Origin: an uncultured delta proteobacterium
Lineage (GTDB): Bacteria; Desulfobacterota; Syntrophia; Syntrophales; UBA2185
Direction: 5' to 3'
Length of the DNA stretch: 64,000 nucleotides
Assembly (NCBI GenBank): GCA_963729715.1
Contig: CAVSPA010000005.1
Span: forward strand, 608,001-672,000
The notes beneath the pieces were generated by a model that saw nothing but the letters and a program-made list of their open reading frames with translations, was not told where the DNA came from and made no database searches. The position numbers and the translations under genes are program-made. Below are positions 8,817 to 10,964 of this stretch, piece after piece. The number at the start of each line of letters is the position of its first letter. Position 1 is the first letter of the stretch.

Positions 8817-8845
8817 TTGACACACAAGACCGCTTATCCTATATT
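8817..8845 (+). promoter_or_regulatory. Sigma70-type promoter for the YkgJ/QxK-repeat unit
   Basis: TTGACA (8817-8822), 17 nt spacer, TATATT (8840-8845). Confidence 0.6.
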
Positions 8846-8880
8846 TTCTCCACATAAAAAGAAGTTCTTATCAAGAGACT

Positions 8881-9651
8881 ATGAGCTTACCGCTGCGCAG
8901 AACAGGACTGAACAGAGAGACGCCTTTTTTCTTCTCATGCTCTCAGTGTCTTCGTTGCTGCCACCACAAGAAAATCCAGGTCAACCCCTACGAAATCGCG
9001 CGCCTTGCTGCGAACCGGCGCCTGTCCACTGCCGAATTCATCGAACGCTACACACACGAAAGCGGAACCATTCTGAATTGGGAAGAAGACGGCGCCTGCG
9101 TCTTCCTCGATTCCCAGGGTTGCGGGGTCCATCCTGACCGTCCTCTTGTCTGTCGTCTTTACCCTCTCGGCCGCCATGTCCTTCCCTCGGGAGAGGAGAG
9201 TTTCTCCGAGATCGAGCCGAATGAGGACTGCAAGGGCGTCTATGGCGATGACGGCATGATCACGGCGTATCTCGACTCGCAGGGCGCCCGCCCTTTCATG
9301 GAAGCCGCCGACAGGTATCTCGATCTCTTCTGGAGGCTTTGCCTGATACTGGAAGAAGAGGCGGCTGAGCCCGAGAAACAAAGCGCCATCATGAGCGTGT
9401 TTAAGAAGTTTGCCGGCGGTGAACGCAACGGTGACATCGGGTTTGCCGATGTGGATGCCATAGTAGCCGCCTTCTGCGAAAAACTATGTATATCGGTACC
9501 GGAGAGTACTGACGACAAAATGTCGATCCACATACAGGCTGTTGAAGCCTGGGCAAATAACTCAGGGAGGAGACAAAAACATGAAGCAAAAAAAAAGAAA
9601 CGAACCGCCACAAAAGGATCCGGGAAAAAGCCCCTTAAGGCAAGCCATTAG
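8881..9651 (+). CDS. YkgJ/UPF0153 (FliB-related) CxxCxxCC cysteine-cluster protein
   Basis: FSCSQCLRCC...CVFLDSQGCGVHPDRPLVCRLYP motif set; 3' end overlaps the next gene by 71 nt. Confidence 0.88.
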   Translation: MSLPLRRTGLNRETPFFFSCSQCLRCCHHKKIQVNPYEIARLAANRRLSTAEFIERYTHESGTILNWEEDGACVFLDSQGCGVHPDRPLVCRLYPLGRHVLPSGEESFSEIEPNEDCKGVYGDDGMITAYLDSQGARPFMEAADRYLDLFWRLCLILEEEAAEPEKQSAIMSVFKKFAGGERNGDIGFADVDAIVAAFCEKLCISVPESTDDKMSIHIQAVEAWANNSGRRQKHEAKKKKRTATKGSGKKPLKASH

Positions 9652-10162
9652 TGTCGCCACCGTTGTTGCCTCACTTGGAGCTTCCCTCGGCGTCAGCGTT
9701 ACTGACTTGATTGCCGCAGACCAGAAGGGCCCCATTCGCAATGAAGCGGTACAGCATAAAGATGCGGCGTCATGGGATTGGGGAAATATAAACGCAAACC
9801 AGTGGAAGCTCTCCGACCAGATCAAAACGCTCGAGGCATCTCAGTTCAAATTTTGGAACCAGGTCAAAGGGGAGTCACGGCAGGGAAAGATCAACATAAG
9901 GCAGTACAAGGAACTACAGGCAAACGAATACAAACTTGCAGACCAGATCAAGGATTTGCGGGCAAGCGATTACAATCTGTCGAACCAGTTTAAGTTCTGG
10001 CGGTCGAACATGCATAAGGGTGATCAGGCAGACCAGCTCAAAATCGACGGCCTCGAATCAAACGAACTGAAGATCGCAAACCAGCTCAAGATCCTGGAAG
10101 CCAACCAGCTCAAGATCTCAGAGCAGATGAAGATACTTCAGTCGAATCAGGATAAGCGCTGA
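9581..10162 (+). CDS. Exported QxK-repeat protein (193 aa), function unknown
   Basis: GGAGG RBS at 9566-9570, ATG at 9581; basic N-terminus plus hydrophobic AISVATVVASLGASLGVSV segment; about 18 [S/A][N/D]QxK units. Confidence 0.8.
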   Translation: MKQKKRNEPPQKDPGKSPLRQAISVATVVASLGASLGVSVTDLIAADQKGPIRNEAVQHKDAASWDWGNINANQWKLSDQIKTLEASQFKFWNQVKGESRQGKINIRQYKELQANEYKLADQIKDLRASDYNLSNQFKFWRSNMHKGDQADQLKIDGLESNELKIANQLKILEANQLKISEQMKILQSNQDKR

Positions 10163-10194
10163 GTATAGATGAGGATACGTATCGGTAAGAAACA

Positions 10195-10225
10195 AAACCC
10201 CGCCCATCAAAAGTGGGCGGGGTTT
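10195..10225. terminator. Likely bidirectional intrinsic terminator
   Basis: AAACCCCGCCCA-7 nt-TGGGCGGGGTTT between convergent genes. Confidence 0.85.
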
Positions 10226-10259
10226 CTAAAATTAATTTCTGTTGCGGCGTAAGGACCCA

Positions 10260-10964
10260 TCACTTCGGCTTCTTCCAGAATGGGCCGGTCTTACCGATTT
10301 CTTTCATGCCTTGAACCATCTCACGGGCGTATTCATGTATGTGTGACAGATAGTCCTTATCCATCCGCCGCCTGAAGAAAGGCCCGGAGAATAGTTTGCG
10401 TAATTGCTCCAGTGACAGGATGCCCTCGTCGGTGCCTTGGACAAAGGACTTCCAGTTGCGGACATGCTCTTCCGACCGGAAGAGATTCATCGTGCTTCAG
10501 GCATAGCCCGGATCTTCAAACCATTTCCAGAAGGGCACGGCTACATAGGCCGTGTATCCTGAGGCTTCGGCATTCAAAATGACCCCGTCCCGGATGACCA
10601 CACGGAGCGGCGCGCCGCAGTCCAAACAGGGGAAATCCACCGTCACCGCCTTGCCAGGGAATAGCCAGCAGACCGCCAGCGATTCGAATGCTCACTGGCC
10701 GAACCATTTCTGCTGACCGTCGATGGTGATCCGGTATTGGGTTGGAAGATTGTTGAAGGGAGCGAAGGAGACGATGTGGTCCGTGCGGGGATACAGCCAC
10801 GAAGGGATTCCCGAGGAGAACAGGTCGTGCATGACCTTCCGGCCTTCCTCAACGGGAAGCCCGAATTCTTGGGCAAGTTCCGTGTAAAAGGGCGCCTGCC
10901 CGGTTTCTACCATGCGTTTCATGATGATGTGAAACGCCTTCTCCAGCATTGGGGGTGCGCTCAT
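10260..10964 (-). CDS. merB: MerB-like (organomercurial lyase fold) selenoprotein, 234 aa, with two Sec residues (U91, U156)
   Basis: Track ORFs 10692..10964 and 10260..10490 are in one frame, interrupted only by TGA at 10692-10694 and 10497-10499. Read-through gives KWFGQ-U-AFESLAV...PCLDCGAPLRVVI...DPGYA-U-STMNLFRSEEH, matching the MerB WCALD, CxxxG and FC..VHFF motifs; a hairpin follows each UGA. Confidence 0.88.
10464..10490 (-). promoter_or_regulatory. Putative bacterial SECIS for MerB U156
   Basis: UGA-agcacg-AUG-aau-CUCUUCC-GGUC-GGAAGAG-CAU; perfect 7-bp upper stem, loop starts 19 nt after the UGA. Confidence 0.75.
10659..10685 (-). promoter_or_regulatory. Putative bacterial SECIS for MerB U91
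   Basis: UGA-gcauuc-GAAU-c-GCUGGC-GGUCU-GCUGGC-u-AUUC (G-U pairs included); loop starts 17 nt after the UGA. Confidence 0.65.

Follow-up and report, generated by a model that had tools for sequence, protein, structure and literature searches.

A conserved two-gene cassette of a YkgJ-type cysteine-cluster protein and a putatively exported QxK-repeat protein that looks like an enzyme-and-substrate pair of anaerobic bacteria

A stretch of 64,000 nucleotides (nt) from an uncultured delta proteobacterium within the order Syntrophales and the phylum Desulfobacterota (contig CAVSPA010000005.1, positions 608,001 to 672,000 of the forward strand; hereafter, the window) carries a compact cassette at positions 8817-10226. 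The cassette comprises a promoter, a gene for a protein of the YkgJ/PF03692 cysteine-cluster family (gene 1), an overlapping gene for a 193-amino acid (aa) protein rich in QxK motifs (gene 2), and a hairpin. An earlier note, prepared from the letters of the sequence, had described this arrangement and proposed that the first protein modifies the second; on re-reading, the promoter, the CxxCxxCC gene, and the overlapping 193-aa gene were all confirmed. Collectively, the similarity searches, alignments, and structure predictions described below point to what appears to be a pair of enzyme and substrate, as yet undescribed and present in many anaerobic bacteria.

On the plus strand, a sigma-70-like promoter (TTGACA-17-TATATT; 8817-8845; 11 of 12 matches) precedes gene 1 (8881-9651; 256 aa), which was assigned by its Pfam match and encodes a putative Fe-S protein whose CxxCxxCC domain occupies residues 20-97 (8938-9171). 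Gene 2 (9581-10162), recognized through its homologs and profile matches, overlaps gene 1 by 71 nt in a different frame and is served by a ribosome-binding site, GGGAGGAG, that can be read directly from the sequence 9 nt ahead of its ATG (9565-9572). Its product, for which export is predicted, consists of a basic N-terminal stretch (residues 1-21; 9581-9643), a conserved hydrophobic leader or Sec-signal-like segment, AISVATVVASLGASLGVSVTDLIAA (residues 22-46; 9644-9718), and a mature repeat region (residues 47-193; 9719-10159). The -35 and -10 elements are kept in seven of the eight aligned loci of the clade to which this cassette belongs, and upstream similarity among the clade loci begins at about the -35, which suggests that the unit has its own promoter. 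Behind gene 2, between convergent genes, lies a GC-rich hairpin of 13 pairs, eight of them G-C (10194-10226; no strand assigned). The hairpin that the earlier note had called a terminator is present. In a terminator scan, however, it is recognized on the minus strand alone, and the plus-strand T tract is weak, so that it looks like a terminator probably shared by the two convergent genes. Base composition across the cassette is not anomalous, and there is thus no compositional sign of recent transfer.

The product of gene 1 carries CSQCLRCC at residues 20-27 and matches PF03692 over residues 20-97 (E value of 1.2e-13; 51.9 bits against a cut-off of 23). In an alignment of 16 orthologs with identities down to 39% (alignment A4), C20, C23, C26, C27, C73, C81, H84, and C91 are invariant. 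The protein probably binds a [4Fe-4S] cluster. It is without a signal sequence and should therefore be cytoplasmic. An AlphaFold2 model (predicted local distance difference test score, pLDDT, of 77.8; predicted template modeling score of 0.75) shows a small beta-rich cysteine domain and then a C-terminal half that is helical, measures ~100 residues, and has no match in Pfam. The core of the enzyme is ~227 residues long and ends in 'HIxAVxxWAA' in orthologs from metagenomes and from genome G372. In A4, these nine metagenome and G372 orthologs stop right past a shared C-terminal helix (eight in 'WAA' and one in 'WAE'), and the enzyme of genome G023 ends seven residues further on. A basic tail of 29-30 aa, modeled with low pLDDT, is found only in the six sequences of the present clade (residues 228-256 of the gene 1 product; 9562-9651). 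This clade-specific extension overlaps gene 2 and is an out-of-frame reading of the start of gene 2, the usual enzyme stop having been lost in the clade; its length has been kept in all six clade sequences probably only because gene 2 constrains it.

At E <= 1e-20, the enzyme subfamily comprises 940 clusters; each of the best 120 has an identity of at least 49% to a metagenome ortholog. No names other than 'YkgJ family cysteine cluster protein' and 'Fe-S-cluster containing protein' are given to its members by the sources, whose labels include Desulfobacterales, Geobacteraceae, Syntrophobacteraceae, Syntrophorhabdaceae, Thermodesulfovibrionales, and Betaproteobacteria; by source label, the isolate Desulfatiferula olefinivorans also carries a homolog. 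The subfamily shares with Escherichia coli YkgJ, under whose name it is annotated, and with generic PF03692 proteins the common CxxCxxCC domain. Unlike generic YkgJ proteins, it has the additional helical C-terminal half and an obligate downstream partner. Loci L026 and L033 (genomes G299 and G006) each have two more distant YkgJ paralogs in tandem (256-280 aa; 30-38% identity over the N-terminal domain), set between a large open reading frame (ORF) upstream and a small ORF downstream. This YkgJ context differs from that of the cassette, and the loci have a redox look, judged by eye only.

Behind the hydrophobic segment of the gene 2 product lie 18 lysines, and the original count of 17 in [Q/E/M]xK was reproduced as 14 QxK, two ExK, and one MxK. 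When residues 46-193 were shuffled 100,000 times, QxK occurred 2.17 times on average and nine times at most. A word-indexed search returned 28 homologs, none with a Pfam domain, and a profile search of 1.84 billion representatives returned 76 matches at E <= 0.001. The 46 of these 76 that were fetched are all shorter than 220 aa and share a basic N-terminus followed by LKKxLAVATxAASLGVSLGV(P/N)VGD(V/L)LA-AD. Behind this leader come (S/T/A)xQxK motifs in variable number and with very different spacers, examples being 'SSNQGKFRDT' repeated five times, 'IESQQMK' repeated about eight times, and 'AVQSK' set between Pro-rich stretches. Leader and QxK motif are thus constant across the family; repeat number, spacer length, and composition vary. 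Among 87 leader-bearing proteins (not de-replicated), QxK holds 610 of the 1,093 lysines of the mature parts, the observed QxK count was reached by none of 2,000 shuffles in 47 of the proteins, and the consensus around the motif is (S/A)(N/D)Q-x-K-(L/F/I). Pfam and NCBIfam yielded no family for 16 repeat-protein members other than a PEP-CTERM tail on one of them, and PADLOC and PHROGs yielded none for four proteins searched in each library. Judged by sequence, the repeat proteins are an unnamed family. Five members (P0053, P0061, P0076, P0077, and P0086) have an additional C-terminal domain of ~55 residues with a consensus resembling GKQTPAxDxxYxLxDGxKxxxxGGxI, which shows weak, below-cut-off similarity to Pfam DUF6799 (E values of 0.025 and 0.08).

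To evaluate the pairing of the two genes, we searched 339 order genomes, a phylum sample of 401 genomes, and metagenome contigs with the repeat protein, or its leader only, as query (forward test). Of the 339 order genomes, 10 gave a match: the genome of the window itself, eight others that carry full-length copies and represent three genera, and G189, in which only a 29-aa remnant is left. All eight full-length copies outside the own genome have an enzyme ortholog directly upstream, with an overlap of ~60-70 nt. The leader protein is present in three of the 401 phylum genomes, the own genome included; the new occurrence, G372, has the enzyme 27 nt upstream. A leader-pattern scan of the metagenome contigs gave 10 records, two of them identical and nine therefore distinct, and in every record an enzyme ortholog (45-54% identity) lies immediately upstream on the same strand. 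In total, all 18 distinct full-length loci outside the own genome are paired with an enzyme gene directly upstream and on the same strand (eight from the order, one from the phylum, and nine from metagenomes), although counts over relatives are not independent and three contig loci whose flanks were read appear identical to three of the order genomes. The only unpaired piece was the 29-aa remnant. Repeat-protein homologs lacking the YkgJ gene, which the earlier note had named as refuting evidence, were found at none of the 18 loci, and its proposal of a dedicated pair is strongly supported.

The reverse test, with the enzyme as query, gave the same picture. In the order, enzyme matches at E <= 1e-98 fell in exactly the eight non-own genomes with the repeat protein, and in the phylum, full-length enzyme matches at E <= 1e-104 fell in exactly the three genomes with the leader protein. 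At the seven loci read from the next tier of enzyme matches (E values of 2e-64 to 1e-37), no leader or repeat ORF was found downstream. The two genes also decay together: one order genome keeps enzyme fragments only, with no repeat gene, and another keeps the 29-aa repeat remnant only. Outside the cassette, the flanking genes differ. Ornithine decarboxylase and PilZ genes flank one locus, a SAM synthetase-like gene (by eye; SAM, S-adenosylmethionine) and a group II intron lie in the flanks of another, and a convergent glycosyltransferase gene is limited to three related contigs; among 42 flanking ORFs scanned against Pfam, no third gene recurs. The pair is thus a conserved cassette across differing genomic contexts, and by source label its carriers include Desulfobacterota, Thermodesulfovibrionales, and Betaproteobacteria, with Syntrophaceae/Smithella-type metagenome-assembled genomes (MAGs) among them.

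These observations bear on the possibility that the two genes are chance neighbors, an ordinary coiled-coil gene that happens to lie beside a YkgJ gene. In favor of this, a profile of the clade's repeat part also matches generic long coiled-coil proteins; the seven long matches that were fetched (283-1,841 aa) have generic coiled-coil repeats with neither leader nor QxK and were rejected as family members. However, pairing at 18 of 18 loci in different contexts, in agreement with the reverse test, is hard to reconcile with chance, as is the conservation across loci of the promoter upstream of gene 1 and of the gene junction, at which start and stop overlap or a short gap is left. We therefore consider coincidental adjacency scarcely credible.

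Several loci show features of their own. In G103 (L011 / L023, L030), the coding sequence of the enzyme is divided between two frames (residues 1-176 and 165-254), by either a frameshift or an assembly error, and the repeat gene is apparently intact. Just 3' of the cassette in one Syntrophaceae MAG (L004, 2693-3985) lies a gene for a group II intron reverse transcriptase/maturase (RVT_1, E value of 1.5e-42; GIIM, E value of 6e-16). In G185, a genome of the same genus, the cassette begins 19 nt past a tRNA-Lys(UUU) gene (L013, 303-378), which may mark an insertion hot spot or be a coincidence. Along with the varied flanks and the decay seen in G188 and G189, this tRNA adjacency hints at a cassette that is mobile or frequently lost. 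In the window, the neighboring genes encode an EamA transporter, a TetR regulator, a resistance-nodulation-division (RND) pump, an isochorismatase, and an HpaB-like protein. The minus-strand ORFs downstream at 10260-10490 and 10692-10964 (76 and 90 aa) are small, conserved, and without a Pfam family, and both are syntenic in L002, the closest relative.

The earlier note had suggested testing whether the SLGASLG leader is conserved. In the alignment of the homologs, conservation is indeed highest in the hydrophobic segment, AISxATVVASLGxSLGVxVTDLIAA(E/D). Mean column conservation in the clade alignment is 0.89 for the leader and 0.66 for mature columns outside the motifs. Across 47 diverse members, the n-region has a median length of 23 residues and a median net charge of +3, the hydrophobic core spans ~16 residues, the L, G, L, and G of the leader are invariant or nearly so, and N or P, and then G, follow as helix breakers. 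In all 47, the residue predicted to lie at -1 is Ala and the one at -3 is V, L, A, T, or I; the invariant Ala is followed by A/D and then by D/E. These features fit a Sec-type signal peptide cleaved after the invariant Ala. PEP-CTERM sorting tails are a feature of proteins whose signal peptide is cleaved. The C-terminus of one family member is such a tail, scoring above its cut-offs, which supports export. Conservation of the leader beyond that of the mature part is unusual for a mere signal peptide and suggests that the enzyme reads the leader too; the putative signal peptide probably also serves as a recognition leader. A leader hidden Markov model (HMM) recovered every precursor among 1,627 ORFs. 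The idea that the hydrophobic C-terminal tails of outgroup YkgJ proteins are leader homologs, which would point to a gene split, was rejected, as the HMM matched none of them among those ORFs.

The same segment could instead be an uncleaved membrane anchor that tethers the repeat domain in the periplasm, with the cytoplasmic Fe-S protein docking on the basic N-terminus, such that the pair would form a two-subunit transmembrane sensing or redox module. The n-region is unusually long for a signal peptide, the GxxxG-like SLGxSLG pattern suits helix-helix packing, and FliB, the nearest characterized counterpart of the enzyme, is membrane-associated (PMC8598068). Nevertheless, the invariant Ala, the V/L/A two residues before it, and the N/P/G breakers 4-6 residues upstream fit a signal-peptidase site, the hydrophobic core is short at ~16 residues, and the member with the PEP-CTERM tail points to a signal that is cleaved. 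We regard a permanent anchor as quite unlikely and favor a cleaved signal that doubles as a leader.

With respect to the mature region, the lysine motif is conserved above its surroundings. In the clade alignment, the motif Q and K columns score 0.86 and 0.84, as compared to 0.59 for the x residue, 0.61 for the +1 residue, and 0.66 for other mature columns. An AlphaFold2 model built from 20 sequences predicts helices at residues 55-100, 106-142, and 149-192 with pLDDT mostly of 83-95 (low confidence for residues 1-58), and Foldseek returned only generic three-helix bundles at E values of 0.02 or weaker. In this clade, then, the mature part is predicted to be a three-helix bundle, and a rough helical-moment estimate, with four to six motifs per helix, places the motif lysines ~110-130 degrees off the hydrophobic face. 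The short-repeat member P0052, on the other hand, is predicted to be disordered (ESM Atlas model with a pLDDT of 0.35), and no neighbor above 0.80 was found for it in the ESM Atlas. Spacers containing Gly and Pro are common among family members. The motif therefore seems to outlive the fold. The alternative raised at the outset, that the repeats are simply a coiled coil, is thus partly right for this clade, with its three long predicted helices, but does not account for the family, in which spacers vary and a short member is predicted to be disordered.

Evidence on the role of the motif residues comes from a sister family. In genome G023, an enzyme 39% identical to the gene 1 product is followed by an overlapping gene for a 131-aa protein (L024, 2166-2561) with a related leader, LRLAMAAATLGMTMGISPGD.. 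(leader HMM E value of 0.006 among the 1,627 ORFs), and 9-residue repeats of the type 'PGAEFPKVE(K/R/Q)'. Sixteen clusters in the protein collection have this repeat type; within the order, it is confined to G023, one of the 339 genomes. The sister repeats have no Gln, and a Lys followed by a hydrophobic residue is the sole feature common to both repeat types. Over the sister family, which includes proteins P0228-P0242, the 9-residue repeats take the form 'PGAxFPKVE(R/Q/K)', and in many members they are preceded by a conserved element, 'RLAAxFxKxDGxxGES', which we take to resemble the strand motif at the N-terminus of Hcp proteins of type VI secretion. A single viral-contig match for the sister family was spurious, lying in the wrong frame of a GC-rich phage gene.

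The sister repeats are informative for a chemistry that would join Gln and Lys. Three-residue motifs are typical of radical-enzyme cross-links, and if side chains i and i+2 were joined as an isopeptide (-17 Da), or if some other product depending on Gln were formed, the repeats would become a string of small rings, as in cross-linked RiPPs with multiple motifs. In keeping with this, Q at -2 is the commonest partner of lysine (59% of lysine contexts in the 87 proteins) and the Q columns are as conserved as the K columns. However, the sister family, beside a homologous enzyme, retains the Lys without Gln in its repeat, and in the clade alignment E stands in place of Q in 68 of 355 non-gap cells; in some family members, whole repeats have E. 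Of the two chemistries the earlier note had entertained, Lys methylation and a Gln-Lys reaction, the latter is therefore weakened, and we judge it improbable.

The mechanism that we favor is a self-contained two-gene cassette in which gene 1 would encode a cytoplasmic cysteine-cluster enzyme and gene 2 its dedicated substrate. The enzyme would recognize the conserved signal peptide as a leader and, while the precursor is unfolded in the cytoplasm, would modify the motif lysines in the manner of FliB with flagellin; the modified protein would then be exported by Sec, and the signal would be cleaved after the invariant Ala. From the sequence evidence, we rate the prospects of this scheme, in which a FliB-like Fe-S enzyme reads the leader and modifies motif lysines ahead of Sec export, as about even. 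The most likely chemistry would be N-epsilon-methylation with SAM, although methylation, drawn by analogy with FliB, is overall less likely than not. A further reading, which we rate as unlikely overall, is that a minimal FliB-like [4Fe-4S] enzyme uses the signal peptide as leader and places on each motif Lys something other than simple methylation, such as a radical-derived cross-link or adduct, which would make these proteins a new class of Sec-exported and multiply modified ribosomal products. The sequences establish the gene pair, its strict co-occurrence, the conservation of leader and motif, and membership in the cysteine-cluster family, whereas Fe-S binding, export with cleavage, and the occurrence, site, and chemistry of a modification are inferred.

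FliB, the flagellin lysine N-methyltransferase of Salmonella, is the closest point of reference. To our knowledge, PF03692 is a very large family with essentially one characterized member, FliB. The gene for FliB adjoins that of its substrate, flagellin, which exits through the flagellar type III apparatus. FliB is a [4Fe-4S], SAM-dependent, and oxygen-sensitive enzyme. While still in the cytosol, flagellin is methylated by it on many lysines, around which there is no sequence consensus, and its N-terminal CX4CX3CC motif is related by the authors to PF03692 (PMC8598068). The present enzyme is like FliB in its PF03692-related Cys motif, and the proposed pairing is like FliB in that many lysines of one later-exported protein would be modified in the cytosol. 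In contrast to FliB and flagellin, the putative substrate has a sharp pentapeptide motif around its lysines and a Sec-like signal, the partner of the enzyme is a repeat protein, and the neighboring genes are non-flagellar. The link to FliB drawn in the earlier note holds as far as membership in PF03692 and breaks down at the level of the FliB equivalog, NF038110, against which the enzyme scores 15.4 bits with a cut-off of 85; only positions 7-83 of the 373 of this model align, all within the CxxCxxCC domain.

That score is one of several observations that count against the proposed modification. The enzyme core, at ~227 aa with CX2CX2CC, differs from the 373 positions and CX4CX3CC of FliB, and no SAM-binding site is recognizable in it. 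Searches of the enzyme model against the Protein Data Bank (PDB) with Foldseek returned nothing at E <= 0.001, a wide structure search (VIA) returned only helical fragments with a best Z of 3.9, and a sequence-profile search of the PDB returned a best E value of 0.27. The motif Lys is replaceable, with R in 19 and N in 20 of 353 non-gap cells, and nine of the 87 leader-bearing proteins have no QxK enrichment (at least 100 of 2,000 shuffles reach the observed count). Finally, pairing in the sister family rests on one locus, and, given the confident helical bundle predicted for this clade, part of the motif regularity could be structural.

A rival reading is a non-covalent partnership, in which a structural repeat protein of the periplasm or surface (a helical bundle in this clade, disordered in other members) is assisted by a dedicated YkgJ accessory acting, for example, as a holdase or targeting factor for the conserved signal peptide, or as a redox- or metal-dependent export regulator. 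Strict pairing alone does not require catalysis, the leader is the best conserved part, as would be expected if leader binding were the main interaction, the mature part is a predicted three-helix bundle, and most PF03692 members are without a known activity. One source also labels a repeat-protein homolog 'cell division protein FtsB', a label that presumably reflects the look of a membrane segment plus a coiled coil. Yet the invariance of seven Cys and one His in 16 orthologs down to 39% identity is what a cofactor site typically shows, conservation of the motif Q and K exceeds that of the rest of the mature part, and persistence of the motif as fold and spacing change points to residue-by-residue recognition. 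A purely non-covalent role is accordingly doubtful in our estimation, and we return to lysine modification as the reading to be compared with other maturation systems.

Bufferins provide a precedent for the export logic. The bufferin precursors (BufA) carry a Sec signal peptide, undergo modification in the cytoplasm by a metalloenzyme encoded nearby, and have neither a dedicated exporter nor a dedicated protease (PMC11626156). The present cassette resembles this arrangement in its export logic and in its neighboring putative metalloenzyme. It differs in three respects. The bufferin enzyme is a multinuclear non-heme iron-dependent oxidase (MNIO), BufB, with the DUF2063 protein BufC, whereas here there is a single PF03692 protein; bufferins are modified at Cys, which becomes thiooxazole, and have no array of tandem motifs, whereas here the array is centered on Lys; and bufferins could be modified without their signal peptide, whereas conservation in the present family is highest in the signal-like leader. 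By analogy, the pair would work most like FliB with flagellin and would resemble bufferins in its export logic, and it belongs to neither family.

The layout also recalls that of peptides made by the ribosome and then modified post-translationally (RiPPs), in that a small precursor gene adjoins an enzyme gene and a conserved N-terminal leader precedes a variable core. Multi-core RiPP precursors with repeated core motifs include graspetides such as plesiocin, and like these, the repeat proteins have one conserved leader and several copies of a short motif in varying number. Unlike these, their mature part of 50-150 residues is not obviously released as peptides, and no RiPP recognition element (RRE), protease, or transporter was found with the cassette. 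As to an RRE-type leader-binding domain within the enzyme, Pfam gives PF03692 alone, and the C-terminal half is all-helical with an unspecific best structural match (Z of 3.9). Our searches of a full-text literature collection brought up neither a link of this enzyme family to RiPP pathways nor an account of such an enzyme-repeat pair.

What appears to be new here is thus a FliB-like enzyme with a dedicated, motif-bearing, and putatively Sec-exported substrate. A distinct PF03692 subfamily comes with its probable substrate encoded next door, and given the sharp motif, the existence of short members (~100-130 aa with 5-10 motifs), and the need for no other genes, YkgJ-type Fe-S chemistry becomes directly testable. 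If the modification is real, the cassette would be the second example, after bufferins, of cytoplasmic maturation of Sec-exported ribosomal products, and would define a new family of modified envelope proteins. If the modification proved to be other than methylation, it would provide syntrophic and sulfate-reducing anaerobes with a periplasmic or surface material of altered charge and protease resistance.

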